This document shows, in pieces, positions 22,940 through 47,004 of a stretch of DNA of 64,000 nt. Position numbers and translations under genes: made by a program. Below the pieces are notes generated by a model that worked only from the letters and a program-made list of their open reading frames with translations, had not been told where the DNA came from and made no database searches. Source of the DNA: Marsupella aquatica (Eukaryota; Plantae; Marchantiophyta); assembly GCA_973895155.1 (NCBI GenBank), contig OZ316893.1, positions 26,896,798-26,960,797 on the forward strand, written 5' to 3'. Position 1 is the stretch's first letter. Each line of letters begins with the position of its first letter.

Positions 22940-23529
22940 AGTTCTGTCAAGAATCAGGCTAGTTGACGTGTGAATTGGATATGATTTGTCATAATTTCTC
23001 AAAAACGAGGCAAACATCTAGTACCTCCTGCAGATGTTTGTGGCATTTCAACTGGTGCTTTCGGATGTGGGGATCCCATGCCCTTCCATCGAGATAAAGG
23101 ACGACTGGAGTCGACAATATCAAATTTAGAGTGATAGGTCTTGGCGTGATTGGACCTGCTAAGTTTGTTCCGCGTTCACAGTTTTACATCCAAATATGTG
23201 CACAGCAATGTCAAGTGAAGACGTTTTGCTGTCTATTGCGATGGAGGATTCATGTCTTTGAATGGTTCACCTGCTGCAGCTAGAGTATAACTCTCCTCTG
23301 TATCAGCTTCTATCCAGCATACTCGCTTGCCATTGCTCTACTCACAAATAAAAGAGATAGTGAGGTGTGTAAACCTTTGAAAGGTGCCTTTGATTAAGGC
23401 ATATTACAACACAAAAGGAATTCGTGTAGAATTTCCTCTACGGAACACCAGACTATTCACTACATAGAGTCTGGGCAGGGCAACACTATCAGTAACGCCC
23501 CAAAAATGCAGCAATGAAAGCCCCATTCT

Positions 23530-23700
23530 CTTCCTCACTACTCATTCCTATCCTGTGGTGAATAGAGTCTCACCACAAGAGATGAGCACTTGCCAATAAA
23601 AGGTTTTGTGCTCACCATCTTTTGTGGAACTCAAGCCCATTCTTGAATTTATTATAATGAGAGCTAGCTCTTTATAGGGGCAGGTGCGGTTTAAAGTAGT
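23530..23700 (+). mobile_element. Degenerate copy of the MITE-like family
   Basis: TATCCTGTGGTGAATA...CTCACCATCT.TTGTGGA.CTCAAGCCCATTCTTGAA...ATAATGAGAGCTAG...GGCAGGTGCGGTTTAAAG matches 50773-51116 and the reverse complement of 8505-8709. Confidence 0.6.
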
Positions 23701-25188: not shown

Positions 25189-26241
25189 GGCATGTTCCTG
25201 GTCGCCTACAAACCTCTGTATTCCTTTGATCCCCTGAGAAGCTTTGATTGTGGTTTCTCTTGGTCTCATTTAAGGTTTCTCCCATGATCCAAGTTTGATA
25301 GGTTTAAATTGCTTTCAGAGATTTTCTCTCTACAATTCTTAATCCTCTTTGGCTTTTCATCCTGGGACAGTTGTTCAGATTTTGGGTCAGATTTTAGTGT
25401 GACTTCCCTCACTCCTCCAGCCCTCAGATTTGTGGTTTCGCTTTGTTAGTTTTTCTTGGTGGGTGACATATTGTCACTTTTCACTGTTGCTCCTGTTTTG
25501 ACCTTGACCTTGTGACTGCATGAGTTTGGACTTTCCCTGACTTCTGGTCCTTGATTTTTTTGAAATTAGGCTCCTTTTACTCCCTGCTTTACTGGGGTTT
25601 GTTTTTCTGACCAGAGTTTTGAGACTATACAACAAAAAATGTAGAGCTGGGATGTACAGAGTATAGCATGAGAAGGGTGCAACCTGGCTCTTTCTTTTTC
25701 TTGAAAAGAGCACTTTACTCATAAGGAGGAAAGTAAAACCCAATAAAAACGGGAGTCACCGGTCAGCCCAGACGGGTCAAGGACCAACAACCACTCAAGG
25801 GCCAAGACACGTCCAAACAAGTCCGGGTTTGGACTTGCCCGGCAAATAGAGGCTTTAGAGTCCGTCAACCGGCAACTTGTCACCCGGACCGTCCCGGCCA
25901 TGACCTCCCGGCTCTGGCTGGCTCACACCCTGTCGTGCGCATACACATCGCTACCCAACATACATCGCTTGTCACACATATCCAAGCATAGTCACAATCT
26001 AACGACACAAACCTAAGAGAATGATCTACAAATGGAACCCATGTCCATACATGCCCAAAACCCACAATCGCCCCCCTAGCTGGAAGTGAGGTCCCCTAAC
26101 TCTAGCTAGCCATGAGTTCTACAAGGTTGATATACACCTTTTTAGGTGTGAAGATCAGGAGGCCGGGTGCAAGTGAGCCCCATCGATCACCTACCTGCAA
26201 TCTATATCTTCCACGAGAACACAAATGATAACTAGTCGGCA

Positions 26242-27573
26242 TCACCGACATTGAGGACACAACCATGATCCACTAGGAATCATGTGCAAGGGTGGTGTCA
26301 AACACGACATGTGCCATCCTCTAGAACACCGATCACAAATCAACATAGTAGCTGCTCCCTGAGCAGACCCACACAACATACACTTCAAGCCAGCACAAAC
26401 ATGTGCCAAGCTTGGATCCACAGTACCATCAATGTTTGGAAGATGACATGGCGCACAGTTACGCACATGATCCTTCCAAACCATACCATCACGTCCTTCC
26501 AATATAAGGACTCCAGAAGGCAACACTTCACGCACACGTAAGATTGTCCGCCCTGCGGTCACATCAAGCGTTGTTGGTGCTGTCTGCTGCAAATAAACAT
26601 AATCGCCAGGATGAAATCTTCTAATCCTCGTGCGATAACCTCCTCCACGAATAGTAGCATACCGCAAAGTATCACGATGTTGGGCAATAGCAAGGTTGTC
26701 AAAGGCCATGGGCATGACTCTCTCAAAAACTCGTGCCCTGTCTGAACAAACCTTGACCCAAACATCTGGATCATCCAAATCCACAATAGTTGCAACATCA
26801 CGACGAATAGCCGCTGGCAAATCTGGTTCTCTACCATAGAGCAAGAAATAAGGTGAAAAGGATGCAAGTGATGCTTGTCGACTAAAACGATAGCCCATAG
26901 CTAACCAAGGTAGTTGGAGATCCCAGTCTCCCAAATGACCAACCTGCAAGCCATACTTACGCAATCCTCTCTTCACAGTTTGTACAACTCTCTCTACCAA
27001 TCCATCTGCCTCAGGATGATCGCGAGAAGTAGTACGATGATCAATCAGAGCTTGCGCACACAAACTCTCAAAATCTCCACGGAATTCCGTGCCCTGATCA
27101 GTCAACACCTCAGCTGGTGCTCCAAAGTGACTGAGTACTCGATCCAAAAATGTGGTAGCCACTCCTCCACTAGCTTTATCTGGCAATGCCACTAGTTCAA
27201 TCCACTTGGAGAAGTGCTCCACCATAACCAAAACATACCGATTGTGACGTTGGGTAAGAGGCAATGGACCAGCAAAGTCCAAACTCCATCGATATCCCAA
27301 ACCCATGATCGGTAGCGGATGCAACTGGGGAGTGGGAGCATTGAACGATGCTCGCACTCGATCACAAACCACACACTTAGCTATCAATTGTTGGACATCA
27401 GTGTGCATACCACGCCACCAATATTGTGTCTGCAGCAAGCTATAAGTGCGCTTTACACCAAAGTGCCCTAACTCTTCGTGCGCATGTCGCACCAAATGTA
27501 CTCGTTGTGACGGTTTTGGTACAACCAACACCTTCCCATCACGTAGTACCCTCAAAAGATGGTTTCCTTCCCA
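26242..27573 (-). pseudogene. Outer element integrase plus C-terminal PHD finger
   Basis: HEELGHFG...CVVC zinc motif, WSLDFAGP, LTDQGTEF, DGLVER (DDE); C4HC3 PHD CMLC...CDRCSRGWHMSCLTPPL...WLCPQC; in-frame TGA at 27574 separates it from RNase H. Confidence 0.93.
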
Positions 27574-29366
27574 TCAAAATCTCTTGGCTCGTTGTAGAAC
27601 CCTATCACGCTCCTTAGCATCAACATTGCCACCAATGGAGCCACCATGCAAATATTCCAACACTCTCACATCGTTGTGAATATCTTGCTGTCCAAAAACT
27701 ACATCACCAACATCCATATCCGAAGACTCATCATCTACTCCATCCAATGAAGTAAAGTCTACAGATCCACTGCATGCTGGCACCCAACAAAGGAAAGCAG
27801 ATGCATGCCATCCTGGCACCATCTCCTTATCTGTCTCATCATGCCATCGAGCTCCAGTCTCATCCTCTTGACTGGTACATGGATTGCGGCTCAACCCATC
27901 CGCATCCAAATTCACTTTTCCAGGTCTATGCACAACCTGAAAATCATACTCCTGCAACAACAATGCCCATCGTGCAAGCTTCCCTTTAAGCTTATCAGAC
28001 TCCATTAACCACTTGAGAGGTTGATGATCAGTGATCAAGGTGAACAAATTACCAAATAAATAGCAACGGAAATGTGCCACAGCCCACACTGCTGCCAAAC
28101 ACTCTCCCTCATAAGAGCTATACTTAGCCTCTGCTGAATTGTTGGATCTACTGGCATACGCCACAACAAACTCATTCCCCTCATCATCCTTCTGAGTCAA
28201 CACTGCTCCAAGTCCTACTCCACTCCAATCAGTGTGAAGCTGAAATGGTCGCCCTGAAATGGGTCTTCTCAAAATAGGTGTTGACGCCAGTCTTTCCTTC
28301 AATTCTTGGAAAGCATGCTCCTGGTCGTCTCCCCAAATCCACTCCTGATCCAACTTAGTGAGTATAGTTAAAGGTTTAGCAAGCTGGCTAAATCCTTTAA
28401 CATACCTCCTATAGTAGCTCGCCAATCCCAAGAATGCACGAACTCTGCTCACATCAGTAGGACGAGGAATCTGTGTAATGGCCTCCAGCTTAGTCTGTTG
28501 CACACCCAATCCTCCTGGGTAGATAGTGTGGCCCAAATACTCAATCTTCTCTTGAAAGAACTTACACTTGCCGGGATGGAGCTTCAATCCATGTTCCCTC
28601 AATCTCTCAAACACAATCTGCAAGTGTCTAAGATGTTCTTCCACAGTAGAAGAATAAACCAAAATATCATCAATATAACATCTGACAAAATCCAAACCTG
28701 CAAGGATTCGATCCATGACTCTCTGGAACTCAGCTGGTGCATTCTTCAACCCAATGGTAAGAACAACCACTGATACAAACGATCTTTGCCATAAGAATCA
28801 ATCCCCCAGAATGCTATCTTGGACCTGTCAGAATGCCTAATTGGCAACTGATGGTACCCCGCTCTGAGGTCCAACGAACTAAAAATCCTTGCATGCCCCA
28901 CTGCATCAAAGATCTCCTCCGGTGTAGGCATGGCATATCGATCAGATTTTGTCTGACGATTAATAGGCCGGTAATCACCGCACATTCGCCTATCCATGTA
29001 ATTGCCATGCACATCCTTCTTGGCTGGCATCATTGTGGCAGATGCATACTCTCCGTATGAAATCTCCACCAAACCAGCTTCCAACAAATCTTGAGTTCTA
29101 CTCCGAATCAACGCCCTCTCCATATCACTATATCGGTATGGTCGTCGAAAGATTGGCGCATCACTAGCCAATTCAATCTGAATACCAGGGCCCTTCAATG
29201 TTCACAAATCCTTCATGCTAAATGCAAAACAATTCCAATAACTCTTCAAGAATTGATGCATTCGATGTCTCTCACCCCCTGTCAACTTAGGGCCAATTTA
29301 TGGCTCCCAACTCTCCATCAAAGCTGTGATGTCTTCCTTTGGTGTTGAAGAGATAGTCGGTGGTTG
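27574..29366 (-). pseudogene. Outer element reverse transcriptase and RNase H
   Basis: RMCGDYRPIN, LDLRAGYHQ, (F)GLKNAP, CYIDDILV, YLGH, LHTDWS, VAYASR, YEGECLA, TDHQPL, NLDADGLSR; frameshift near 28755, stops at 29202 and 29298. Confidence 0.93.
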
Positions 29367-29559
29367 CTATTTAGCAACAATTTGAGCAGTCCCAACCTGC
29401 TCAACAATCTGTCCTGCCTTGGCCAATCCTGCCATAGGTCCATGGGCTGTCTGCTCGCCCCCAGCTGTGGTCGCTACTGTCTCAGTAGACCGCAAGCTCA
29501 CCAACGGACGATCAGTAACACCAAAAGAGCGCATCCGCAATTGTTCAGCTAATCCCAAG

Positions 29560-30326
29560 CTGATAATCCAAGTCAAGCAATTCAAATCCATGGCTTGACC
29601 AAGGACTTGGCGGCGTGAACTCTCTAACACAGAGGCAACCGTAGTGGTGCCAGTCAAAAATCCCATAGCGCGCTCTCTTTTATCAGCAGTAGGTTCCACT
29701 AACTGCTGTAGAGTTGTATCCCATACAAGTCCAGGCCCACTTGCTCTGAATGCATATGAAGCAGAATGGCTCACAAAAGTGGGTAATGCACAACGTGGGC
29801 GACCAACTACATTGACCACTGCCAATGGAGGTCTATCAGGCTGGGTCACACCTTGTGCACGACGCCCTGGATCCAAAATATCATCCACCACCAAGGCTGT
29901 TGAGCGAGGAATGCTATCAAATGCTCGCTTCAACACCTCACAAGGTAACAAATTAGTCCACCACAAGCGTGGATGATGTGCACGAGAACCCACACGTGCA
30001 GCATCCAATAACACAGCAGGTCCAATCCAAGACTTAACCTGATGAACGCTGGCAACAAGTCAATGACGATCATCACCCAATAATGGCACATTCTCCAAAA
30101 TGTAGGCAGGGGAATGTGTCTGATGCAACTGAAGATGACGCAATACCCGTAACATCTCCCAAAACAATGCAGATCTTGGATCATGAAGTCCATGTCCAAC
30201 TCCACCTCTAGATTGACCCTGACATGGCCAACCCGCAATCATCAAATCAATGGGGCCAACGCGATCCACATGATCCGCCCCCACCAATGAAATATCAGCT
30301 GGCAATGCATGTTGATAACCACGAAC
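29560..30326 (-). pseudogene. Outer element C5 DNA methyltransferase, C-terminal part (motifs III-X)
   Basis: ADISLV, DLMIAGWPCQGQS, DPRSALF, ILENVP, AHHPRLWWTNL, RERAMGF, RRQVLGQAMD; in-frame TGA at 30060. Confidence 0.9.
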
Positions 30327-30546
30327 GACATGTCGTGACATATAGTATCGTAGCCATAGTGTATCGAAAACATACAAGTCACTGGCAATGCATATGTGCA
30401 AGCTGCTAGCAACCAACATCCTGAGAAAAAAGTCCAATCACATTCACAAGTGCCAAGAAAAAGCAACTGAGATGGTATGTACGTAGTGGAGGTGTAAACC
30501 TCTGTATCCCCCCCAGACCATAGTCAAAAGGAGGGCAGAAGAAAAT

Positions 30547-31850
30547 TCAGGTAGCACGTGGAGCACAGGAAGGGCAAAACCATAACCCTTTTGGCACCTG
30601 GGTAAGTTCAGGCCGAAGGCAGAAAAGATGGTACCCTCCATTGCAATTGTCACATAGCAGCATCTGGTCAGCATCATCAATTCGCAAACACACTTTGCAA
30701 GGGTAGTCCACAGGTGGAATCCAAGTAGAAGTCACAATGGTGGGATCCAGGTTAGGCAGATGACAAGGGGCGTAATTCTTGGCATTGTCAGCAATTGTGC
30801 GCCCATCTGCCCCTTGTAACTCTAGCACTCCAGACGGTCGAATAGCTTTGACCCTGAGAATAGTGCGACTGGTAGAGGTGTCCAGGGTGTCGTTAGCTTG
30901 CCGCTACAAGTACACAAAATCTCCCACTTCAAACTTCCTGACCTTGGGCTGAAAAGTGCCCCCTCGTGTGTGTGCATAACGCAGTGTGTCCCTGTGCTGT
31001 GCAATGGCCAAATTCTCCATGGCCATGGGCATAACCCTCCTGAATAGGGCAGCCCTCTCAGAGATCACATCAGACCAAGTCACAGCTGAATCCAAGTCCA
31101 CCACCTGAAGCATGTGAGAAGCAATAGCAGAAGGTGGAACTGGGTGACGACCAAACAACAAGAAGTAGGGAGAAAAGTTAGACAGTGATGCATGTCTAGA
31201 CATCCTATACCCCATGGCAATGTAGGGTAAGGCCAGGTCCCAATCCTCCTTGTTTTTGGTGAGGCAGATCTTCCGAAGGCCCTTCTTGCATGTCTGAACC
31301 ATGCGCTCTGCCAAGCCATCTGCCTGTGGGTGATCTCGTGATGTCCGGCGATGATCAATGAGAGCCTGATCAAGCAGCTCCTGGAACTCTCCTCTAAACT
31401 CTGAGCCCTAGTCAGTGAGACATTCTGCACAAGCTCCAAAGCGGCTGAGAACTTGTTGCAAGAATGCCTGGCTGGTGCTACGGGAGGTCTTATCCGGCAA
31501 TGCCACAAGTTCTATCCACTTGGAGAAATGCTCTATCATGATCATGATGTAGAGATTACCCCGAGATGTTAGGGGTAATTCTCCAGCCAAATCACATGAC
31601 CAACGATAAAACATGCCCTGAATAGGGAGTGGATGAAGTGTGGGTTGCCGAGATGTGAAAGAAGTCCTTACCCTATCACACTGCTCACACCGGGCAATAA
31701 CATCTCGAACCTGGCCATGCATGCCTCTCCAATGATAATGGGGGACCAAGAGGCTATAAGTCCTCTTAACACCAAAATGACCAAGCTCAGAATGTACCTT
31801 ACGGATAAGGCCAACCCTCTCATGAATGGGTGGAACCACCACTTCCCTGT
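30547..31850 (-). pseudogene. Inner element integrase plus C-terminal PHD finger
   Basis: HSELGHFG...CEQC, WSCDLAG, LTD*GSEF, DGLAER; PHD CKVC...CDNCNGGYHLFCLRPEL...WFCPSC; in-frame TAG at 31408 and 30904. Confidence 0.93.
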
Positions 31851-33540
31851 CTGGCAAGCATCGCACAAGATGATCTCCCTTCCACAAGTAGCGCTTGGAC
31901 CTTTGCTGAATTCGGTCTCTCTGGGCAGCAGTAACATGGGTGGGGTACTCCCCATCCTGCAGAAATCTCAGAGTGTCGCTGTCCTCCCATATGTCCACCA
32001 CAGGTTGGTCAACAATGTAGCATGGCAGCAAAGCAAGATAGGTAGATGCATGAAATGTAGGCAGGATGGAAACCTGGTCAAAATCCTGCCGTGCATCTGA
32101 GGGATCATCAGAGGCAATCAAAGGGCTGCGGGACATAGTGTCAGCATTTTGATGTGTCACACCAGGCCTATGAATTACCTCAAAATCATACTCCTGGAGT
32201 ATGAGTGCCCAACGAGCAAGCTTGCCAGTAAGCTTGTCGTTGGTCATCAACCACTTCAAGGGCTGGTGGTCGGTGTAGAGAACAAACCTGGTCCCATAGA
32301 GGTAGGGCCTGTAATGTATGACAGCCCACACAACAGCAAGGCATTCACCCTCATAAGAAGAATAATGACTCTCTGCCTGATTGTTGCTCCTGGATGCATA
32401 GGCAATGACGTACTCTTTACCTTCCTCATCATGCTGGCCCAGAATGGCACCAATCCCAAGGGCACTCCAATCTGTGTGTAGCACAAAGACCTTGTTGAAA
32501 TCAGGTCTTCTCAGCACCGGGTATTCTGAGAGCTTCTCCTTCAAAGTGGCAAATGCTGCCTCAGCATCTGTACTCCATGTCCAAGTCACATTCTTTTTCA
32601 ACAAAGCATACAATGGGTGTGCAATGGTACTGAAATCTTTGATGTAGATCCGGTAGTAATTGCACAACCCAATAAAACTCCTCAAAGTGTGAACATCGGT
32701 AGGAGTGGGCATTTCCAAGATGGATACCACCTTGGCCCAGTGAGCCATGGTTCCATTTGGAAGAATGCGATGCCCAAGATATACTACTGATCTGACAGCA
32801 AATTCACACTTCTTGGGGTGTATCTTTAGGTTCACCTTCTTAAGCCTCATGAATAGCTCCTCAAGGTCAAGTAGATGCTGGTCAAATCCTTTGCTGTGGA
32901 CCAACACATCATCAATGTAGCATTTCAGAAACTCAGCACCTTGCAGAACCTGGTCCATGACTCTTTGAAAGAATATGGGCGCATTCTTCAAGCCAAATGG
33001 CATCACCAACCACTCCCATAGTTGGTTACTACCATGGAAAGCTGTTTTCTTGCGATCCTTTGCAAGCAGCAAAATCTGGTTGAAGCCTTGCCTTAGATCC
33101 ACAAGAGTGAAGATGTCTGAGTCTCCAATGCTGTCAAATATCTCCTCTGGCCGCGGCATGGGGTACCTGTCCTGGGGTGTGACCAGGTTCAATGGCCTAT
33201 AGTCCCCACACATGCGCTTCTCTGTCCACAATCCATTGGAATCCTTCTTTGCTGGCATCACTGTAGCTGCCGCAAAATCTGATGTAGATGGTTGAATAAG
33301 ACCAGCTTCATAAAGCTCTTGGCACCTCTCATCCACCAGCTGCCACTCATGCTTACTCAAACGGTGTCTCTGCCTAAAGATAGGTGTTTCATCAGCCAAC
33401 TCAATGGAGAACTGCATAGTCTTGCACTTACCCAAGTCCTTCATAGAGAAAGCAAACACATTCTCATGCTTGAGGAGCAAATTCAGCAGCTGGTCCTTCT
33501 GTCTTTTACTCAGGTGGTTGCCCATGATAAATGTGTAGTT
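31851..33540 (-). pseudogene. Inner element reverse transcriptase and RNase H (uninterrupted within the 969-aa ORF)
   Basis: RMCGDYRPLN, VDLRQGFNQ, MPFGLKNAP, CYIDDVLV, YLGH, LHTDWS, IAYASR, TDHQPL, NADTMSR. Confidence 0.95.
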
Positions 33541-33869
33541 AGCAACACTAGGAATAGGACCTGATGTACTCGTGCTTGAAGAGCCAGAAGTGCCAGCCTC
33601 TCCACTGTCCAAGCTGCTAGCATGCTGCTGATAAGGTAATGAGGCCTCTCCAAGGCCTGTTGTATTTGTTGCTCTGGTCTGATCCACACTATGAAACTCA
33701 GAAATAATGTCAGCCACATTACAAGGGACCTCCTCCCCCCCAACACTTGGACTGAAGCGGTGAGTGTTGAATAGAGGTAAGTGCACCTGGTCTGGATGCC
33801 ATGTAGCAGCACTGTGGAGGGGTAGGGCTGGAGCTCCTAATGCTGGAGGAATGTACATCTGAAAAAGGA

Positions 33870-34825
33870 TGCAAGTGACCAGAAGCCAAGTGAGAGCATT
33901 GAGATCCATTACCCTGCCAAGTAAAGCAGTCCTGGCCAGCCTGGTGATTTTGGTGTGACCTGTAGTACCGGGTTGGAAGCCCATAGCCCGTTCTCTCTCC
34001 TCAGGACTAGGTTCATCCCATGTACCGGTAGAATGTCGATAAACCAGCCCAAGACCATCACCCTGAAAAGCATGTGCACCTGGAAAGGACACAAATGTAG
34101 GCCAAGCAGCACGGGGTTGTCCAATGGTATTAGCTGGATACCAAGGTGCTGGCTCTTGCCGTGTAACTGGTTGGCAAGAACTGTCAGGATCCAAAATCTG
34201 GTCCACTGTAAGGTTAGTGTCCCTGGATGTGTGGTAAAGAGCCATCTCCAGCAAGGAAGGTGGTGCAAGGTTAGTCCAAAAGTTACGAAGACGATGTGCA
34301 TAAGAACCACAGTGCACTGCATCAATGAGAAGGGTGGTCCCAAGTAGTGCTGGACCACACTGAAATCCTCTTTGACCTGTGGACGCTGGTCAAACTGAGA
34401 TGGAGTATTCTCAATGATATAACCAACAGCAGGATAAAGGGATTGAGCCCAGGTGAGAATCTGAACCAATGCTGTAAAAAGGCCAGAACGAGAATCATGC
34501 AGTCCAGCATCGTGACCAGCAGCTGAAAACCCTTGGCATTCCCAACCAGCTATGATCAAATCAAGGGAGCCAAGAAGGGTTAAGTGCCGGTGCTGGACAA
34601 GCTGGATATCTGGAGGAAAGAAAGAAAATGCAGACTTCCATGCACTGTGTGAAAACTGCTGAGGAAATCGCTCTGAAAATTCCAGCAGACGGGATTCAGC
34701 CACTTGCCTTGCACTTGGATCAATATCCACATAGATGTACTGCTTCACCACCATGCCAGACTTTAGGAGAGCTTCCAAGCCTGTAGAAATGCCACCAAAA
34801 AGCTCAAGCAATGTAAGGCCATCTG
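33870..34825 (-). pseudogene. Inner element DNMT3-like C5 DNA methyltransferase domain (motifs I-X; frameshift near 34328)
   Basis: LELFGGISTG, YVDID, PDIQ, LIIAGWECQGFS, DSRSGLF, IIENTP, YAHRLRNFWTNL, ERERAMGF, RTALLGRVMD; the C-terminal half shares one ORF with RT-RH-INT. Confidence 0.9.
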
Positions 34826-34883
34826 AAGGAGGAGTCCAGGTAATTGGTGCGCTCAAGATTGGGGCTATTGGTTGTCCATTATG

Positions 34884-37800
34884 CTACCCAAGGTCCTCAA
34901 ATTTGTGCAATGCAGCCACCAAAGGTCCATGGGCTGCTTGGAGCCGTTGTACCACCTCTGGTTGATGATCCACGTTGCTGGAAAGTGCTGCTATACGTGC
35001 AGCAGCATGTGCAATAGCCACCTCATCATCATCCTCCTCAATCCAATCCTGCAATGGGTGGTTGACATAGGTAGCTGTGTGCACTGCTTTCAACACACAG
35101 TGGTGAGCCATAGGGGTATGGGCACCATGCAAATCAAGTGGAATGTAGCCCAAGTGTGAGCCATCCGTATGCCAATCAACTCTGTAGTATGCATGCTCAT
35201 GCCAGTTGTCAATGGTAAAACCTGGTGGGAACAAAGCCTCCTGGCCAATGAGCACATCATACGTAGTGGCATTGGTAACCAAACATCTGACTGGGAAATG
35301 CAGTTCCTGATCTGTACCTCCATTAAAAGTGAGAGTGAGTAAAGTAGAACTCTCACCCAGCACATCCTCCACAGTGCCACTAGCAGTCCGAATGTGCCAC
35401 CTGGATTGTTGTAAATGATCAGTCAGCAGTCCCATCTTCTTGGCAAACTGAATGCCCAAGATCACTGGTTGAGCGCCTGTGTCTAGCATGACCACTTGAG
35501 GAGTGTGACCCTCCAACTTGACTGCTGAATTCCTGTTGTCAACAATGGCAATGGTGGTGGAAACTAAAGTCCTGTCACTAGGCACCACTTTTGGCAAATG
35601 ATGAGGTACCTTGTGAAGGGAGTTAGTGTCCACGGTCTTCCCACTCAACAGCATAGCTAGGAAAGATGGAGCAGCATGACCAGAATCAAGTGTAGCTCTG
35701 GTCACACAATCTGCAGCAATAATGTCATCTCTACCACTGGAAATCGGTACTGGGATAGCCAAACCAGTGGAAGCATGCAGTGGAGAAGAAGAAGGTCCAG
35801 TATGTACATGAGATTGGACCTCCAAAACCGGTGTCACAGGGGCTGATGAAGAATGCAGTGAGCCCTCTAGCGCTCTGATGACAGCTCTAGCATCCAGCTG
35901 TAAATCCTGGCAACTGAAAAGTGGAGTGGTAAGAATCCTTTGTGCCATACCGGAGGTGAAATGCTCAAGCAGCTCAGGAAAGACAACTCCCTGTGAAATG
36001 TCAGCAGCACCTGGTGGTGGAATGGATGTAGCTGCAGCTCCCTCCCCCCTCGCCAACAAGGTGCGCTCTTCAGCAAGTGTGAGTGGCTGAAAAGATTGGG
36101 GCATGACAGCCCGAGCTCCCCTGGCTCTAGTCATAGGACCAGCAACAAGACCATCAGCCTGTACAATGCGGCGTGTGGGAGCAATACGGGAGGCAGCACT
36201 GGCCTGCTGGTAAGCAAAATAGGAAGGGCAGAATGAATCTGAAAATTCTGTTGTAAGGCCAGGCTGTGTAGCAGAGGAGAGCACACACACTCACCCATAT
36301 GAGCATCAAATGGCAAGCCATAGAAAGAGCGGGGTATGGGTGCTGAACTGTCAGTGGTGCCTGGGCCAGGGATGGGTTGCACGTGACCAGCCGGTTGAGA
36401 AGGACCAGTAGAGGTAGTGGACTTGCCTTTGATGTTGGCAAGTTGGGCACGTAATGACTCAACCTCATGAGTCAGAGACTGGAGTTGAGTTGCCTGTGCG
36501 TTGTGAGCCTCCTTCTGAGCTGGTTGCTTCTGTTGTTGCTTGGGCAATTTGTGAGCACTAGATGCTTTGCCACTGGAAGGAGGAGCAACTGATGCAGTAG
36601 GAGCCCTCCTAGCTGGTGGGGGAGTGGAAACAGGAGCAGGATGGGTGGCCTGCTGTCGTAGCTGCTTCCTCTCGGGGAATTTAGCAAAACAAACTGCCTC
36701 CAAGTGGCCCACTTTCCCGCAAAAATCACAAGATAGGTCCTCAGCAACAATATCACATTCATTAGCCTTGTGATTGGGGTTACCACAGTAGTTGCAAGAT
36801 GGCAGCATGAAAGCAGCATGGGCTGGCTTGGTCTTGGAACCATACTATGGCACACGGGAAGGAGTGGCCAATGTAGGGGCAGCAGCCTGGTACCTGGATC
36901 GCGGTGGATGCGCAATACTGGCCTCATAATGTGCATGGGCCAACTCAAGTTTCTCAACAGTATCATAGACATTGAGCAGGGTGTAGCTGTCTCCAAACTC
37001 TGAGAATACTTGCTGCAACACTTGCGAATGGAGAGCTGGTGTGCCCTCCAATGCGCGAAGATAGCGATGAGCAGCTTCCAGGTCAGTGATGCTCTGGGTG
37101 TCTTCCTTCAGCTTGAGAAGCCGGCGATACAGCATCTTCAATGTTTCATCGCGCTGCCTCACAAAGGTGGCCAACTGCATGATTTTGTCAGCACTCTTGA
37201 TTGGGAATTCCAATTCAAGAACCTGGAAAAACTCAGCCACGGGATCAGCAAAGGCAGGGGAATCAATGGTGGGAGAAATGCCTGATGTAGCCTGTGCCAA
37301 GACAGTGGGAGTAACTGGTGCAGTGGTGGGAATTGGAGTAGGAGGGGAAGTGGCAGGAGCAGCAGCATGGGCTGCAATGGCATTCTGTAATGCCAGTTGT
37401 GAGGCAGCCGCAATTGCAGTGGCATAGGCAGGGTTAGGCATTTGTGTGACAGCAAGCAGCCGTTGAGAATGCTGCTCATACACATCCAAAGCCTCGTGGT
37501 GCACATACCTGGCTAGCTACTTAAATGCAAAAGCATTTGTGAAATTGCTGCCATACTTCAACTCCAATTCGTAAACGACAGTGTAGAAAGTGGATTTGAA
37601 CTCACGCAAAGAAATAGTGCCTGGCCGCCCGCTGAAGCGTTCAATGCGGCCAGATGAGTGGTTGACGTCCATGCTGTATGTCGGTGAAGCAGGAACAACC
37701 ACGGATGCAGAAGGAGTAAAGGGCAAAGATGTAATAGCAGGCTTCAGGGTAGTGGTGAAGCGACCGCCAAATGTAGCAGAAGGGTTGCGTGGTGTGGGTG

Positions 37801-37936
37801 CTGCTGTTGTCTGCTGACGCCGACGAAATTGTCGAGACTCCAATGAAATTGGCACCAACGGTCGTGGATCACTCCGCAAGTGGTACCTGGGTGTCGGTGG
37901 CGATGAGCTGCTACGAGTCGGCTCCTCTGCTGACAT
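34884..37936 (-). pseudogene. Inner element Gag (two CCHC knuckles) and aspartic protease
   Basis: ERFSGRPG, F.RQRDETLKMLYRRL, CNYCGNPNHKANEC and CDFCGKVGHLEAVC, MLDTGAQP...YDVLIG; in-frame TAG at 37517, 36845, 34884; (TG)n slippage frameshift near 36285. Confidence 0.9.
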
Positions 37937-37946
37937 GCTGCATGCT

Positions 37947-37960
37947 CACCTGGGGTGCCA
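37947..37960 (-). promoter_or_regulatory. PBS-like sequence TGGCACCCCAGGTG just upstream of the inner gag ATG
   Basis: Starts TGG, is preceded by CA-T, and ends 10 nt before ATG 37936; from memory it resembles the complement of a tRNA-Arg(CCU)-type 3' end, not verified. Confidence 0.45.
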
Positions 37961-38574
37961 ATGGGAAAGAAACTGACAAGAAAAAGAAATGGCAACCCCA
38001 AGGCTAGGAAATGAAACCCACAAAGGAAACAAACAATGCGAGGCAGAAATGGGTAGAATGTGTAAGCACGGAGAAACCGTCACCGGAGAAAAAGGACCCT
38101 TAAAACCACCAAATTTTCCCTTGTCGCACTTACCTATGTGTATACATAAGCAAAGCAAAGAATAAGGGAAAACGGGCCCCTAGAACGTGAAAGGAGGGCC
38201 CCCTTTACATGTATACCTCGGGCCCCTTGTGGACCCGGAAACTGGCAACAAAGGTATGCAAAAGTAGGTGGGACGGTCGTCGCACGGCGAAGGAGCAAAA
38301 AGACCAAAAACTAAAAGAAAAGGACCCCAATTAAGTGTATACACATGGGGGCAGGGCGTCGGCAGAAAAATGGTCGTAGTGGGGACCGGCCACGGTGCCT
38401 ATGCACATGCCCTCATGTGAGTCGAAAGACTCTGCAATCGTCGCGCAGCGGACGAGCAACCATGGGGAAAAAGAAACAGAAGAAAAACGGCTTTGGCAAG
38501 GGCGAAAGGAATAGACGAGACCCAAGGCGAGGCGAGGAAAAAGAAAACGGTCCTTTAAGTGCTCGAGCCCTGCA

Positions 38575-38910
38575 TAGGGCTTTGCGCACCCTCCCCCTCC
38601 TCTAATGCTGCCTAGGGCCTCGTGCCTGGCAGGACTGTGACTCCCGAGAGGAGGGAGTCGAATGTACTCCCCCTCTAATATTGTATTGGGCTTCGTGCCC
38701 TCTCCTGGCAATCTCGCTCCTCTCCTGCTCTAATTAATGCCTCATAGGCCTTCGTGCCTGGCAGAAAGACTCCTGTGGGAAGGAGTCGTATGTACTCCCC
38801 TTCCCCCTCCTGTTAATGCAACATGGGGCTGCGTGCCCTCTCTTGGCACTCGCTTCCCCCTCCCCTCTTTAATGTGTCATAGGGCCTCGTGCCCTCTCCT
38901 GGCACTCGCC
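38575..38910. repeat. Degenerate ~65-bp tandem array in the inner element leader
   Basis: TAGGGCCTCGTGCC(TGGCAG / CTCTCCTGGCA) variants near 38575, 38613, 38687, 38746, 38824, 38880. Confidence 0.75.
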
Positions 38911-39896
38911 CCCTTCCTCTCCGTGGCTTGTGTTCGGCTCCCCCTCCTCTCCTCGCGCTTGTGCTCCTGCTCGGCTCCCCCTCGCACTGAATTAAATGCT
39001 GGCCGAGATGCTGGCAAAAGCAAGGGAGGAAGAAAAAAACGCCGAAAGGAGGGCGCGCGGCCCTATGCGCGACCCAGGGGCAATGACGAGCCCCGCATGT
39101 GTATACACAGGCAGGACGGGGAGGCCGGTAGGAGAGAAAGAAAACGTCCGGAGTGGGTAACATGGGCGTGCGGCCCTATGTGCGTGGTCGCCCCCTTGGC
39201 CGTGTGCATACACAAAGGTGCGGCCTCCAGCTGCCAGGCGGCAAGAAAAGAAGGATCAAGAGAAGGGGCGAAAAGGCCCCCCTGAAAACGCAAAACCTCC
39301 CGGAAAGTGAGAAGCGCTCCCCTCGTCTCCTCCTGTGTGTACTCCGCTGGTCCGCAAATTTAAGTGTATACACATAAGTGATGTGTATACAAAGAAAAAT
39401 CTAACTCTAACTCCATCACTAGATTTTTCTTCAAAGAAATTGCGCTGCTGTCGACGGAAAGTGTTGACCGTCGCGAGCAATTGAGAAACACAGCGTTTCT
39501 GATCTTCTTCCCTTCACTCGTCAGTTCTTCTTGAATAAAAGGCGTGATAGAAACAAACATACTGAAATCGAATCGAAAACCGGCGAGATGCCAAGATCGG
39601 CCGGGAGCATCTAACAAATCACTGTGTGAATTCCGTGTACGGAACCGACGAGCAGCCTCTGAAAAACTCTGTCTCACAGCGATTCAAGAAGAACTGAAGA
39701 ACGGCAAAGAAAAACATGCCCTAAGTAGGACCGGGTCCAGGTGTCACACTAACAAACCCCTTTTGCTTCAAGAACAGCCCAGACTCGCTACAAGAACATG
39801 ACACTAACTCAAGTAGTACACTAGCCCTAACCATACCTAGCGGGCATGCGAGGGACATGCCGATGTGCACAAGCGGCACTGTCCCTCGGCATGACA

Positions 39897-42861
39897 GACA
39901 TCCACTGGCAACAATTGTGGGTAACGTTCGACCAACAATGCCACATGACGTAATGAGACTCTACGTGCTGTCTCATCAGTCTCCACATACAAATAACGGT
40001 GCTCAGGAATGCCGGCTTGAAGAATGGCAGCCAATCCAGTGCTAATTCCACCAAATAAATCCAACAAACAAATACCCTCATGTGGATATTGCCATGCAAT
40101 AGGAGTAGTATCCAGTGGGGAAAGAGTCACCGGTCCATTTGCAGTTGACTGCTCTGCTCCTGATTGCGGTGTAAAAGCATGATGCCATGCATCATGTATC
40201 AATCGGGCCGCACTTTGTGGCAAGGCCTGTCCAGTACCCCATACTAGTGTCACAACACTATCAATGGGCAATCCATGCATGAAGTGTTCCTCATGTGTCT
40301 CCTCCACCGTAGGAACATCTGCTGCATGTGCGTTACCCTCAATCAAATTATTAGCTCCAGTAATCAAACTACTAAATGCTGCCAAAGATAATGGTGCAGA
40401 TTTGGGGCCTCCAACAGGTCCACTAAATCGCACTGGCAATTGGCTCAATCGAGCATCTCCAGATTGCCAATCGGGTTGATACAACACTGATTCATTCCAA
40501 AAATCAAGAACAAATCCCATAGGATAGAGAACTGTACATCCTACCAAGACATCATATGACTCAGCCTTAGTCAAAATAGCTCGAGCCTGGATCCGTGAGT
40601 TATCCTTTGAATGATCCTCCTGAATTCTAAGTTCAAGTGCTCGTCGAGTAATATGTTGTGTGGGTGTAGGTCCTCCCAATGAAGTCTGAATGGGAAAGGG
40701 ACACTCCTCCAAATCATCAGGACGCAATCCCAATCCTCTTATCGCAGACTTACCCAACATCAAGGGCTGAGCACCAGTATCCAGTAACACTCGCTCTGGC
40801 TGGTATATTGCTCTAGAAGGCCCAACTAATCGGAAGATATCACTCCGATTATCCAATGATATGACGCTAGGTTTAAACCTAGTCCTCTCATAAGCAGGGC
40901 GCGCTGGTAAATCTATCAACCTTGCCGTTGCTGCATGCCATGTCTCATTACTGGCAATAGGTGGATTCAACTCCACTGCTTCAGAATTGGGCGTTGCTTC
41001 TGCACACGAAGCAACAGCTGGAGTGTCCTCGCATAATGTGGCCGCCAATCTGAACACCTCTGCTGGACTAACTCCCAATGTCAGCATATCTGTAGCAGAA
41101 AATAATGGCGTGCGCACTATAGTAGTGGCCGCCCCCAACAGGGTACTTGTCATCCTTGTCACAACATCACTTGAATCCGCCAACTTTCCCCCACCTGGGT
41201 TAGTCCGAACCGGATTCATAGAGGTAGTTTGAACTGCCTCTAACAATGTAAACGATTGGGGAAGCTTCGTTTGACGACAAATATCCCCTCTCTGAGGATC
41301 CAACTCTACCACTGCTCCTCGTGGCTCAAGGGCTTTAACTGCTCCTCGAGTCAAAGCTGCTGATGCATCAACATGCGCAGTGCCACACATAAATCCCATG
41401 GTGGCAAGATCTCCATCAGCTCCATAAGAGGTTGAAGCTCCATAGGATGTAGAAGCCCTATCACTAGCAGTAGGTCTAACTTGAGAACTAGCCATTGCAG
41501 CTAGTTGTTGCTCCAATTGAGCAATCTTTGCATCCTTAGGATCTGTGGTAACGGTAGGAGCAACATCACCTCCCTGTCTTCCTGCATGTGGCATGCCTCG
41601 ACCACGTCCACCACCTCTACCTCCTCTTCCACACGTGGTCCTCCCCGTCGTAGTTCAGGATGAAGTACAAAACACCTATCTTTGGAGTGTCTAGAAACTC
41701 CACAATGATCACACTGTCGTTGATCAGGTGTAGATGCCCCTCCTTGCCCCCTATTATCTGGGCAATATCTTTGTGCATGATCCCCACCACAAGTCCAACA
41801 TCCTGATTGTTGTCCAACATAAGAAGACACAGATCTCTGACTAGTAGATTCCCGTGTTGTAGGCTTCTCTCTCTGGCTCTTACGTGCAGTAGGTTGCGGT
41901 GTGGGCGTCGATGCAACCTTTGGTGCTTCCTTGGCAAATCCAGAAGTCACCACCTTCTCATTCACCATATTGAGCTCAATGCGCTCAGCAAGTGCAAAAA
42001 CTATAGCCAATATGGGATCTGAATCCCTCAATAGAGTGGCATCTCTCACTCTACGACGCAACTCCCTATCCAGAATTGCATACCAAAATTGGACCGCTTG
42101 GGCCTCTGTCACTCCTTGTGTGACCGTAATCAATCTTCGCATACGAGTGTATGCCTCACGTAGGCTCTCTCCAGTCTTGCGCTGGAACTCTTGAAGACCC
42201 TTCAACTTATCGGTTCTCACACCCTGGTAGTTCTGCTTCAATACTTCAAAGAACTTCATCACAGGGTTAAATGTTGGCGCAGCTCCACTCCCAGCCACAA
42301 TCACACCGGTAGGAGTAGCGGTGGATGCTGATGGAGTGCCACTCTGGCTAGTGCTGCTAGAAGAAGCCGCAGCTGTAGCAATGGGTTGGGCAACCGCACT
42401 TGTGCCATAAGTGATGGACACATAGTTTGGTGACCAATGCTGTCTCCATGCCTCAATATCCACTAAATGAGCCTTTTCGAAACTCATGGTAGTCATCCAT
42501 GGGTGGCCCCTCCAAATGCTGAAACAACCCTTTCCAAGCCATGAAAGGTGTGAACAATGTGGCATTACGCATTGGTATCAAACTCTCGGATGAAATCATC
42601 CAAATCAATCGTGCCAACTGCACCAGAGTATCTCCTCGGTTCTTTCGTGGCCCCATACATCTCTTCCATATCCCACAACAATGGCACAGTCACTTGATGT
42701 CGAGGAGAACTGGCTACTAAGTCCTCGTCAGAATCACTATCTGAAACCCCACTTGTGACCACTAACAATGTCGTCGGCCAAAATTGCACTCCACTCCGAG
42801 TGAAACCAGACCGTCGTCCCTCGGGTAGCCCCGTATCACTAGAGGACTTCGTGATGACCAA
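39897..42861 (-). pseudogene. Outer element Gag (two CCHC knuckles), aspartic protease and DNMT motifs I-II
   Basis: RRYSGAVG, FQRKTGESLREAYTRM, CWTCGGDHAQRYC, CDHCGVSRHSKDRC, LLDTGAQP...YDVLVG, LDLFGGISTG, YVETDE; several frameshifts in gag. Confidence 0.9.
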
Positions 42862-42913
42862 TTTTCCCTAAATGGTCACCATCAACTCACCATTCTCAAT
42901 AATCAACCGATTG

Positions 42914-43313
42914 GCGAAACGGTGTTCCGTGGATACCCATCACTCAATTGCGGAACGGTGTTCTATAATGCACCACCACCAATCTCCAAGACAATTGACA
43001 GAACGGTGTTCCGTCAATTGCTTAGTTGCGAGACAATGTTCCGCACCAACCCTTCTTCACAACGTAGACGAGATGTGTAATGGGGCAGACCAATCTTCAA
43101 TATGCACCCACGACGGAATAGTGTTCCGTGGAAAACCAATCTTCCCAAAATTATCACAACAAAATGGTAATCTGTACCCGATCGTTCTCCAATATGCACT
43201 CACGACGGAACAGTGTTCCGTGGAAGACCAATCTTCCCAAAACTACCACGACGGAACGGTGTTCCGCGGTCAACCAATCTCCAATATGCCCTCTCAACGG
43301 AACGGTGTTCCGT
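42914..43313. repeat. Array of about 8 palindromic 17-mers (ACGGAAC-NGT-GTTCCGT) in the outer element leader
   Basis: Copies at 42914, 42950, 42998, 43028 (degenerate), 43113, 43205, 43251, 43297. Confidence 0.85.
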
Positions 43314-46300
43314 GGAAGACCTTCACAACCCTATTGCTGCGAAAACCCCGCCCGCAATTCCCGGACAAAGTCACTGTTCACTCACTTTGTCGTTTTCCTT
43401 GTGTCCTAGGTCGCTGCCGCACCTCGCCTCTTCGCGGTGCACTACATCGCCTCTCCGCGGTGTGCTACGTCGCCATAGGGGACACAATTCGTCAACATCC
43501 AACGTCGCTTTCTTCAAAGAAATGCACTATCCGTCAACATTAAGCTTGACGAATCTCAAATCCGCAAGATACAACTTCAACTATCAACCCCCGATTGGAA
43601 CCATCCCCAACCAGAATCACAAACAATCACAAGTCCGACCAACTTGCCTTCACAAAACCGCAGTGAATACTCTTAGCAATCCGCGCATAACAATCGACGA
43701 CAACTTCTGATCATCGACCACACATTCACTCCTCCAACATGCTGCAATGTCGATCGATGCAAATCGCAACTCCAAACGCGCAACTCAACAACTCAAAGCT
43801 CCGCATTCACTCAAGCTTTCTCAACACCAACTTGTAACAGATCGAGATACCAACAATCCGTTCAACAACAAAACCCGATCCGAGATACCACGAATCGTCA
43901 ACAACAAAACCACAACGAAATCGAACTTCTGTTTGCACAATCCGTACATCAGAATTCGAAGCTGATCTTTCAATGTAATCTTCTTCAATAGTGCAAATCG
44001 AACAACGATCGGTGCTAGTCCAACAACGATCCCATCCGACGCGATCACACATGTATGTCAAGCCCAACGCACCTTGTGCTTCAAGGAATCCACGTTACAT
44101 GCACACAACCTGGTCAGCCACACCATAGCCACCAAGCTCATGCTCAAAGGCTCAACATTGAAAGATGAGGCCTTTGAGCCAACACAAGGGGATAACTATC
44201 CCTCACACCAACTCAAACTAAACACAGTGCTCATATAACACACATACAAAACCTCTATACCTAGATAGTACGATATACTTTACTACCACTCTAAATGGTG
44301 TGACACCCCACCCCGACCCTGTTCTGGCCCGACCCCCGGCTTGTCCCGGCCTCTCCCGGCCTGACCCCTGGCCTGTCCCTGCCTATCCCGGCCTATCCTG
44401 GCCCGGCCCGGGAAATAACAAGGAACATCCGGTATTTGGGTCGATTTTCGCCCGGCAACTCGACAAGTTGCCAATCACTTCAAACCTGGAAACAAGTAGG
44501 CAATGGCAACAAAGGAAGAAGGAACAGCAACTAAAATGGCCACCAGACCAATAAGAAAATTACCTAGGAAATAATCAATTATATTCCAAAGTGTAATTGC
44601 GATAGGATATGGACGGATCGGCTGCAACTGGCAGAATATTCCCTGAGCCACATCCTTCAATTACGAGGAAGGTAAGACGTATCGTACGAAGTACTGTACA
44701 ATACATTATACGGTGTTGTATCTGAAAGGTAAATACGGAGTAAAGTAAAACATAAATACAGCGGTCGGGTGACGGCGATCTGAGGTGCCGTAGAATCGAT
44801 CACGGGTACAGCACTAGGGAGCCCAACGCATTTGGCGTGCGGGAAATCGCCGGAAATCTGATTGTCAGTCAGTTGGGCAGAGGGCCACCCCGTCCAGGCC
44901 CAACCTGATCTTGTCCGGCCCGGCCCTGCCAATGGGCCAGGGCGTCAGGCACTGAGCCGCAGACGAACCCGATCTTGTCCGGCCCTGTCCTGGCCCTGCA
45001 CTTAGCTGAGCTGAAGACGAACGAAGCAGAGTACAAGAGTACACCGATCTCTCTCTAAGTGCACACTCCGTAAGTGAACACCCTGGATAAATGCAAGGTG
45101 CCGAGTTCTTCCCTTTCGTTTCCTACCAGTTTTGTAAGTGCATAGAGGCTTGCACTGAACGATAAATATATGTAAGTGCAACAGTTCCATGAGGGTTATG
45201 CACACTCATGGGTAACCTCACAATTCCTTCCATTTACAATCGATACGTGCAAATTTTTGTGATACAGATTAATTTGCACTTAGGTTGGGGTATACAATTT
45301 ATGAAAGGAGTCATTTTGCCGTCCATAAAATGCAAATTCCAAGTGTTTGCACTTGAGGATTAGTGCAAACCCTCAGTAAATGCACACCAGAGGCTTCTTC
45401 CCGGGAGTGTGCACCTAACGAGAGGTCCCTGTAGGTCTGCAGCCCAAGTCGAGCTCTTCCTTTCCGTCGTTGAAGCTCTTGGGTCGGCGAAGAGGCCATT
45501 CGAAGAGTGCTGAATGAGTTTGGTCGTAGATAGAGGTGCGTGAGTGCGTGAGTCAGTGAGTCAGCACGCAGCAGCATTGCAATTTTTTACTCATATTGTA
45601 GTACTGTTTTGCGCCTGTTGGCAGCAGAATTGCAAGCGAGCTTTCGAAGGAGAGAACTGTACAGCAGGAGACGAAGACGGCGATGGCGGAGCAGGGAGTG
45701 CTGGAGGAGGAGGAGTAATAGCAGCGGCAGCAGCACCAGCAGCCTGGAACTGCCGGCCAGCAAGCCAAACGGAGAGCAGCAGCAGAACGAGGAGGAATGG
45801 TGTGACGATTGTTGATGATGACGAGGAGGAGGTGTAATCGATCTTGATCATTTCGTTTCATTTGTCGGCCCAACGAGAAGGCATTCGCTGATTCTATCTG
45901 CCCTAGGCAATCGCTGGTGCCCACGCCCTCCCTTCTATTTTCTACACCCTTGCCCGCCCTTCCTTGCCAGCTTGTTCTCTCGGGCGCGGTCCCTTATTGT
46001 TCTCTCTTGCTACATCTCGTACTAGATTTGCTCGCGCTTCTTCTAGACGTGGTCGATGTCGTCTCGAAGCGACTGGAAAGGAGGATTAGTGCGCAGAAAG
46101 GATCAGTCCGGAGTGGAGGATGCATGAAATGGAAAGAGGGAATGATGTCGTAGGGTTTGGAGATAGATGGATGCAGAGAACGGTGGCGTTTTCGAGGCCG
46201 TGTTCGACCGGTCCTGAAATTTTGATAGCGTCCTGTTGACAGTCATCTTTTTCATTAAAGACGTTCTGTCTGCGGTCGACGTAGCTCTGAAGAAAGGAAA

Positions 46301-47004
46301 GGGAAGGAAAACGGTGAGCAGGCGGCACCGTAGTTTTCGGTTCCAAGGGGGGGTTGGTTTGGAGGAATAATAGATCTAAAGGGAAGAATAGTAAGGACTG
46401 TTGTAGTTCCGGTACCGTACCACGAGGTCTGCAGGAGGGATGGTCGCCTTTTCTCGGGAGGCGACGAAAGAGCAGGTTATTTTCTCACGATGGGAATGTA
46501 GTGGTGCGGTTCTGGAAGTGAACCCCGGCGTAGACGATGGCAGGGGTGGTGCTATTGGTAGGTCACAGGAGGAATGAAAGACAAGGAAAGCATGTGGACT
46601 GACATAAGTGCAGCACGTAAATGATGGCTCGGCTCTTGGGTGTGGTAGGAAGTTACTCTTGGCCAAACGCCACAATCTCTCGGAGAAGAACGAACTGTAT
46701 TGTGAGCGGGCAACGGATTGGGAGGCTTAGGTAGTAAGGGGTGTGGATTAGCTCTACTCCGGATTCCGGTCACCTGTTGTCTCTCAGTTTGATCTTCCAT
46801 CATCTGTCGTTCTACTTCGTTGTCTCAAAACTTGAGACAGTAAAATTTTGCCTCTGCGGACCGCTTGGCACCAGGACCTCCTCTCACTCCTCCAGGGTAC
46901 TTTCCCGCCTGTCTGATCAAATCCTTCCTCGTACTTCCTATTCTACGTCTTTTGTCCTAATGCCCGGTATTATCTGATCAAAGGGGAGCCGAGACTCAGG
47001 GGAA

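Follow-up and report, generated by a model that had tools for sequence, protein, structure and literature searches.

A window of 64,000 nt from the liverwort Marsupella aquatica (contig OZ316893.1, assembly GCA_973895155.1) carries on its minus strand two nested, decayed Ty3/gypsy-type retroelements, an outer one at 25931-44305 and an inner one at 30331-39896 (positions are those of the window throughout). In both copies the polyprotein is ordered gag with zinc knuckles, protease with the motif DTGAQP, C5 methyltransferase, reverse transcriptase (RT), RNase H, integrase and a C-terminal PHD finger. No paired long terminal repeats (LTRs) were found in the window, where local alignment scores stayed within the range of shuffled sequences; both elements are bounded by two repeats, here designated A and B, in the arrangement A-coding-B. 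The elements and their coding parts are listed below.

25931-44305, minus strand: outer element, A-coding-B form, starting TGTCACACC and ending GCACGACA, 8.8 kb without the inner insertion
41501-42867, minus strand: outer gag with zinc knuckles, broken (Retrotrans_gag E 0.027, weak)
39900-41654, minus strand: outer protease (DTGAQP near 40781), followed by the beginning of the methyltransferase (39900-40082, motif I LDLFGG)
29550-30326, minus strand: remainder of the outer methyltransferase (GWPCQ, LENV, AHHPR, ERAMGF, LGQAMD), with an in-frame stop at 30060-30062
27574-29201, minus strand: outer RT and RNase H, with one frameshift
26242-27573, minus strand: outer integrase and C-terminal PHD finger (rve E 3e-14, PHD E 1.9e-10)
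30331-39896, minus strand: inner element, A-coding-B form, 9566 bp, TGTCATG...CACGACA, lying in the outer methyltransferase
38573-38916, minus strand: degenerate short repeats in the inner 5' leader
36275-37672, minus strand: inner gag with zinc knuckles, two stops followed by a frameshift, 61% identical to Calypogeia CAM6101866.1
35166-35528, minus strand: inner aspartic protease (DTGAQP; gag-asp_proteas E 2.1e-7)
33850-34826, minus strand: inner DNMT3-type methyltransferase (LELFGG, GWECQ, IENT, AHRLR, ERAMGF, LGRVMD), with a frameshift near 34330-34344
32185-33372, minus strand: inner RT (YIDD) and RNase H (RVT_1 E 2.7e-28, RT_RNaseH E 2.9e-38)
30547-31830, minus strand: inner integrase and C-terminal PHD finger (30547-30738), with two stops

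The nesting reported in a preliminary description of this DNA proved exact: the inner element lies within the outer methyltransferase between two copies of TGTC (39897-39900 and 30327-30330), an exact 4-bp target duplication. The outer element is wider than that description gave. It most likely runs from 44305 to 25931, and its 5' end is less sure than that of the inner copy because its flanks, GGGG at 44306-44309 and GGGT at 25927-25930, match in only three of four positions. On its minus strand the window has four occurrences of the heptamer CACGACA, two of them forming the 3' termini of the two elements. Both copies are dead: the inner one has five in-frame stops, all TAG, and two frameshifts, one of them within the methyltransferase, and the outer one is interrupted by the inner insertion and bears several stops besides. 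Arrays of short degenerate repeats are present in both 5' leaders (42910-43326 and 38573-38916), with unrelated sequences.

A Pfam scan covering 16 window frames bore out the C5 methyltransferase that had been proposed between protease and RT of both copies. PF00145 matched at 30060-30437 (E 2.1e-10) and 33909-34883 (E 3.4e-7), both matches exceeding Pfam's curated cut-off, and RVT_1, RNase H, integrase and PHD profiles likewise matched both copies. As described earlier, RT, RNase H and integrase of the inner copy are encoded in the same frame as the C-terminal half of its methyltransferase (31408-34389, 993 aa from stop to stop); the 969 aa originally given are compatible with a GTG start. 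The motif AHRLRNFWTNL, which had been assigned to both copies, is present in the inner one, whereas the outer one reads AHHPRLWWTNL. The frames scanned contained no match to a tyrosine recombinase, none to Chromo (the chromodomain that chromoviruses such as Tcn1 and Chlamyvir have behind the integrase), this place being occupied by the PHD finger, and none to DUF3444 downstream of either methyltransferase. The best solved matches of the PHD finger were the fingers of CHD4, WSTF, KDM5 and BAZ2, which are readers of the unmethylated histone H3 tail, like the ADD domain of DNMT3.

Assignment of the methyltransferase to the DNMT3 type was upheld by profile and structure-model comparisons, which ranked DNMT3A or DNMT3B first. 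A profile of 17 rows compared with solved structures reached 112 bits against DNMT3A (E 3e-31), 57 against DRM, 53 against HhaI and 45 against DNMT2, and none of its 58 hits was DNMT1, MET1 or CMT. The structure model represents the intact methyltransferase domain of a metagenome locus (L003), which is 66% and 78% identical to the two halves of the inner domain. This model (pLDDT 96.8, from a 60-row alignment) retrieved DNMT3A by Foldseek at E 7.9e-20 and aligned with DNMT3B at Z 29.8 (rmsd 2.5, 271 aligned residues), with lower Z for M.MpeI (26.0), HhaI (23.5), DNMT1 (19.9) and ZMET2 (19.2). The fold is complete from motif I to motif X and the motif order is unpermuted. Furthermore, all 60 aligned rows agree in the catalytic Cys, the Glu of motif VI and the first Arg of motif VIII; the inner copy retains these three residues, and in the decayed outer copy the first Arg is replaced by His. 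Immediately before the catalytic Cys, motif IV carries Glu in 89 of 150 relatives as well as in the inner copy, and Pro in 45 of the 150 as well as in the outer copy. By this distribution, Glu at this position is a trait of the lineage and not a product of decay.

Compared with the metagenome loci, the inner copy gave dN/dS values of 0.15 (65 loci) for one half of the methyltransferase and 0.075 (80 loci) for the other, 0.05 for RT (37 loci), 0.09 for RNase H (38), 0.065 for the integrase (27) and 0.10 for the protease (55), ratios that are rough since dS lies between 1.2 and 2.6, near saturation, and biased downwards for the C-terminal methyltransferase half, by whose similarity the loci were ranked. 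Values so far below 1 contradict neutral evolution of the domain, in agreement with the selection claimed previously, and indicate that the methyltransferase is under purifying selection, the rough Ka/Ks of either half being under 0.2. Among 20 matched loci compared with each other dN/dS was 0.35-0.49 in all domains; because decay after insertion is mixed into these values, they were left unused as evidence. The inner and outer methyltransferase domains are 44-49% identical, with synonymous sites saturated.

The CpG observed/expected ratio of the inner coding region is 0.28, compared with 0.46-0.62 for the rest of the window. This region (30547-37945) is CpG-poor and not CHG-poor (1.19), while five metagenome loci (L003, L007, L044, L046 and L054) are poor in both CpG (0.34-0.42) and CHG (0.53-0.77), a contrast hinting at different host methylation regimes. 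Changes between the first and second A of relatives comprise 90 CHH, 31 CHG and 28 CG transitions and 11 transversions; this CHH-rich pattern reflects host methylation and is uninformative on the element's own enzyme.

The domain recurs in other copies. At least 433 of 598 listed pattern matches in metagenome contigs encode a relative of the methyltransferase; the locus set used here consists of the best 80 of these related stretches, and in the 22 longest of the 80 the domain order was that of the window wherever it was mapped. The closest named relative is CAM6101866.1 of the liverwort Calypogeia fissa, a 1549-aa open frame on a 14.8-Mb contig that runs from gag through protease and methyltransferase into RT. 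Its identity to the inner copy is 59-72% over the length of the frame and 78% within the methyltransferase, whose intact domain occupies about residues 946-1264. A profile search returned 1075 clusters at E 1e-30 or better. Among the best 150 of them (50% identity), the domain lies after the protease or before RT in 13, after RT/RNase H or directly before the integrase in 95, and alone in 42. Klebsormidium nitens GAQ93235.1 and several Closterium proteins are the named before-RT members, and Chlamydomonas eustigma GAX86472.1 is the sole named member of the after-RNase H group.

In a methyltransferase tree of 48 rows, all of the 19 before-RT rows, with GAQ93235.1 and both window copies, fell on one side of a branch with 100/97 support, placing the window copies among proteins of like domain order from Klebsormidium, Closterium and Calypogeia; the base of this group was not resolved. 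An RT-RNase H tree of 29 rows, confined to methyltransferase-bearing elements and with seven near-identical rows omitted, gave the same split (SH-aLRT 99). The former tree was rooted at its midpoint, with no host DNMT3 outgroup, neither tree was rooted by an outside sequence, and both omit about half of the proteins carrying the methyltransferase after RNase H. On the simplest reading of these topologies the domain would have been captured once, long ago, and would later have changed its place within Pol; two independent captures of the domain are possible. The after-RNase H group, which both trees set apart from the window's group, forms a large sister family of it that is likely to be chlorophyte, and the accessible text of the literature examined makes no mention of it.

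With zinc knuckle, protease and methyltransferase in the window's order and a place in the same tree group, K. nitens GAQ93235.1 is, we infer, the published KnitGypsy-Dnmt3 element (de Mendoza et al. 2018, PMC5890265). The window elements belong to this published, little-studied kind as its land-plant members and do not constitute a new kind. The interpretation given in the preliminary description is supported as to the DNMT3 type, the origin from a retrotransposon, the purifying selection and the occurrence in further copies. The lineage is not a land-plant invention, since it is the same as that of the Klebsormidium element and hence older than land plants. The inner RT-RNase H (32185-33372) is 86% identical to a metagenome copy (P0001), and the inner methyltransferase groups with metagenome copies and not with Calypogeia (99/91). 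If the hosts are distant bryophytes, these relations may indicate horizontal transfer. A scan of viral contigs with the outer methyltransferase domain found no relative, for which reason the ends of the outer family are drawn from the window alone.

The terminal features of the two copies are as follows.

43977-44305, minus strand: outer repeat A, inferred extent from terminus to primer site, similar in size to A of relatives
43965-44166, minus strand: outer predicted self-priming pair, 44155-44166 being a perfect 12-nt complement of 43965-43976
25931-26080, minus strand: outer purine tract and repeat B (26068-25931, ending CACGACA)
39537-39896, minus strand: inner repeat A, inferred extent, starting TGTCATG like A of relatives
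39521-39697, minus strand: inner predicted self-priming pair, 39682-39697 being a perfect 16-nt complement of 39521-39536
30331-30519, minus strand: inner purine tract and repeat B (30507-30331, 177 nt, ATACA...CACGACA), with start, end and size as in relatives

Relatives have the layout A-coding-purine tract-B-A-B, with an A of about 290-310 nt (TGTCATG...CAAT) and a B of about 165-175 nt (ATACATGAG...CACGACA), of which the window copies show the reduced form A-coding-B. Exact 4-bp duplications adjoin the TGTCA...(G/A)ACA termini in 11 of 14 elements, corresponding to 8 of 11 separate sites, with one further element matching in three of four positions and two unclear; such exact duplications occur in the full form, in the A-coding-B form (L065 and L069) and in solo A-B. 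At the B|A junction, a 2-nt spacer was present in 18 of 20 hits of a pattern search that finds only consensus-like junctions, the other two hits not being junctions. The 18 spacers (GC in 9, AC in 4, GT in 4 and AT in 1) are consistent with a palindrome, GACAGCTGTC, in decay at this junction. For the same 18 hits, the A|B joint behind the junction was exact in 10 cases, several of which stem from one and the same site on different contigs, clearly ragged in 6 (+1, +1, +5, -2 and two large deletions), doubtful in one and lacking B in one. Moreover, an A-coding-B-A-B copy (L007) and an A-coding-B copy (L044) occupy one common insertion site.

A tRNA-type primer site, starting TGG after A, was absent from 19 loci and from the window copies. 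In 13 of the 19 loci the site following A is complementary over at least 11 nt to a position that lies about 30 nt downstream of a TATA-like box. Both window copies have the same pairing in unrelated letters, 16 of 16 positions in the inner and 12 of 12 in the outer copy, and this predicted self-priming pair closes the predicted 5' RNA folds of both.

The last 40 nt of B contain three and four CpGs in the window copies (30331-30370 and 25931-25970) and four to six in five of eight loci, compared with about 0.7-1.1 expected from their own coding regions; these CpGs may mark sites for the integrase or for methylation, or may belong to enhancer motifs of the ACGT type. Two loci, L014 and L017, have their first A in inverted orientation (4475-4765). 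The first 60 nt of the inner A (39838-39896, minus strand) have, by eye, the look of a long hairpin.

Known systems share parts of this organization. According to the text of PMC5890265, KnitGypsy-Dnmt3 has a DNMT3-type domain inside a gypsy Pol, unpermuted motifs, purifying selection and split, DIRS-like repeats, and its domain was without activity in yeast; the window elements differ in their land-plant host. Their C-terminal PHD finger goes unmentioned in the main text of that paper, and 4-bp duplications, a self-priming site and an internal B|A palindrome are undescribed for KnitGypsy-Dnmt3 there, a distinction that is drawn from the text and not from its figure or supplement. SymbioDIRS-Dnmt3, treated in the same paper, likewise combines a DNMT3-type domain in Pol with A-coding-B-A-B repeats, and it methylates CG in yeast, but it encodes a tyrosine recombinase in place of the integrase and resides in a dinoflagellate (PMC5890265). 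The split direct repeats A1-B1-A2-B2 are also those of PAT, TOC and Ngaro, which encode a tyrosine recombinase, whereas the window elements have a DDE integrase and target duplications (PMC4157794). Tcn1/Tf1-Sushi chromoviruses, which are present in mosses, resemble the window elements in that self-priming is predicted instead of a tRNA primer, and differ by ordinary paired LTRs and a chromodomain (REXdb, PMC6317226). The REXdb survey was built from paired TG...CA LTRs, and methyltransferase and PHD have zero mentions in its accessible text (PMC6317226). Surveys of this design would miss the family because its ends are split.

With canonical LTR retrotransposons the window elements share the purine tract, the DDE integrase and a target duplication of the usual 4-6 bp; two direct TG...CA LTRs and a tRNA primer-binding site, typical of the former, were not found here. 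REM1 of Chlamydomonas reinhardtii reportedly has a gypsy polyprotein with a PHD finger and LTRs composed of subparts. The same combination is described for Gypsy-7a_cRei of that alga (bioRxiv 2022.06.16.496473), for which the text lists no methyltransferase and a figure legend places the PHD finger before the integrase. Finally, bryophyte host DNMT3 proteins (PpDNMT3a/b, PMC6453930) and animal DNMT3A/B agree with the window domains in fold and motif order. The bryophyte host proteins have DUF3444 (PMC6453930), whereas the window domains are embedded in Pol and the lineage often has Glu-Cys in motif IV.

Altogether, we consider it reasonably probable that the locus holds two decayed copies of an old green-plant lineage whose enzyme likely methylates the element's own new DNA and whose integration likely proceeds from a circle opened inside the terminal repeat. 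The RNA would very likely start inside A and act as its own primer at the site that directly follows A, in the manner of the Tf1/Tcn1 group, Tf1 being self-priming, with no tRNA involved. We are surer still that the plus strand would start at the purine tract, that the true LTR would be B+A, and that the linear cDNA would be BA-coding-BA with ends other than TG...CA, because purine tract and primer site set the limits of the LTR. Joining of the cDNA ends would give a two-LTR circle, and the integrase would, on balance, cut its internal B|A palindrome (GACA-NN-TGTC) after each CA. The cut circle would insert as A-coding-B-A-B with a 4-bp target duplication and ragged A|B joints; the element in the chromosome would begin and end with what had been the internal B|A junction, and the joint made by the two LTR ends would be found at A2|B2. 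Recombination between the two B repeats would then, with good probability, leave A-coding-B, the form of both window copies. For retroviruses the two-LTR circle is a dead end, and the route, if true, would provide a natural case of an integrase with LTR circles as substrate.

In intact relatives a single frame covers gag, protease, methyltransferase and RT, from which it follows that the enzyme would be produced and packaged along with RT and integrase and, once cleaved from Pol beside RT, would be present during cDNA synthesis. We lean slightly towards the view that it marks the cDNA or the fresh insertion to match host chromatin, with the PHD finger reading the H3 tail.

Several observations weigh against this account, in addition to the roughness of the dN/dS ratios and the restriction of the junction search to consensus-like sequences. 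A symmetric circle should also yield the mirror product A-B-A-coding-B, and B lay upstream of A in none of 24 loci at 18 separate sites, an absence which is the weak point of the circle. The ragged joints and the difference between L007 and L044 come from metagenome contigs and may be assembly errors or later deletions; assembly collapse in particular would look like a site with two forms. The predicted 5' folds are overall no more stable than shuffled sequences (z -0.8 for the inner and -1.4 for the outer copy). The inner copy, like 89 of 150 relatives, has Glu-Cys where DNMT3 has Pro-Cys, and no methylation was obtained in yeast with the Klebsormidium domain, an outcome that its authors call inconclusive (PMC5890265).

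A bolder version of the circle account, which we regard as unlikely, would make the two-LTR circle the normal insertion route of a green-plant-wide family whose own DNMT3 marks the CpG-rich end of B, strand-specific methylation picking the junction that can be cut and shielding the chromosomal one. Methylation by Dam gates IS10 transposition. Such gating, if true, would explain both the missing mirror product and the retention of the enzyme since before land plants.

Copying of the PAT/Ngaro type is a possible alternative to the circle, if a tentative one: template jumps on a transcript reaching from A1 to B2 would produce the full form without an end-joined two-LTR circle, or A-coding-B might arise straight from linear cDNA cut at both junctions. 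PAT and Ngaro are likewise arranged as A1-B1-A2-B2, and the Klebsormidium repeats are termed DIRS-like by de Mendoza et al. (PMC5890265). Copying of this kind leaves no missing mirror product to be explained, and exact target duplications are also seen in the A-coding-B copies L065 and L069. It is opposed by the lack of a tyrosine recombinase match in either window copy and by the DDE integrase, TG...CA termini and 4-bp duplications that are present. Also against it, B2 begins with the very base with which B1 begins behind the purine tract, and the end of A2 coincides with the start of the primer site, giving the joint expected of two LTR ends.

Turning from the route of integration to the role of the enzyme, an active methyltransferase might do its work once the element has integrated, by silencing the new copy or its surroundings so that harm to the host is limited, and not by disguising the cDNA. 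The likeness of the PHD finger to those of CHD4, WSTF, KDM5 and BAZ2, readers of the unmethylated H3 tail, speaks for this, as does the CpG-poor inner coding region (0.28 versus 0.46-0.62). Silencing after integration is also offered as an option in the Discussion of PMC5890265. Against it, the domain sits in Pol beside RT and would be packaged with nascent cDNA, and CpG loss is caused by host methylation as well, the comparison here being with the rest of the same window. We therefore rate this role as rather unlikely and retain marking of the cDNA or fresh insertion as the preferred one.

Retention of the domain as a non-catalytic module for DNA binding or packaging would accommodate the motif IV Glu that the inner copy shares with 89 of 150 relatives in place of Pro, as well as the inactivity of the Klebsormidium domain in yeast (PMC5890265). 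It is improbable in view of the catalytic Cys, Glu and Arg kept in 60 diverged rows, the complete fold with motifs I to X, and the CG methylation by related SymbioDIRS-Dnmt3 domains (PMC5890265). A host DNMT3 gene fragment captured by chance at the locus, or an assembly chimera, would fit the broken state of both copies but has next to no credibility, being already contradicted by the related stretches (at least 433) with their common order wherever mapped in the 22 longest of 80 loci, the grouping of both copies with algal retro-methyltransferases, the lack of a DUF3444 match after either domain, unlike in host bryophyte DNMT3s, and dN/dS far below 1.

DNMT3-bearing gypsy elements have, in the sources accessible to us, been placed in Klebsormidium or algae; here two deeply diverged families share one land-plant locus, and the open copy in the liverwort Calypogeia fissa together with hundreds of related metagenome stretches extends the land-plant record. 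A 2019 opinion article describes methylase-bearing transposons, in its accessible part, as absent from land plants such as tracheophytes (PMC6338049), and a recent preprint reports Gypsy-DNMT3 in 'streptophytes', with no land plant named in the text seen (bioRxiv 2026.05.21.726589). A literature search, with subscription papers outside its cover, returned no description of the element in a land plant or of the circle route. What is new is the host range, a likely chlorophyte sister group with a moved domain, and a testable account of the split ends. The question why a transposon carries its own silencing enzyme is thereby brought near tractable moss and liverwort models.

A flanking PPR remnant, a receptor kinase and the closest named relative, that of Calypogeia fissa, fit a land-plant host and make a bryophyte one likely. 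Broken PPR genes lie at 10769-11238 (minus strand) and 11841-13450 (plus strand) and contain the repeat LEWVKEVHGHA, which we take to be typical of bryophyte PLS-class editing factors. An LRR receptor kinase, presumably RPK2-like, occupies a single frame of 881 aa from stop to stop at 46978-49623 (plus strand), an exact look-up of which returned no match, and a spliced gene for an Oma1-like peptidase M48 is located at 20123-23300 (plus strand). The flanks of the outer element (44306-44420 and 25700-25930) are both GCCGGG-rich and of the same kind, so that the outer element likely landed in an older small repeat. A short dispersed repeat family is represented by three copies at 8510-8619, 23535-23693 and 50817-51005, one of which has a 63-nt tandem duplication.

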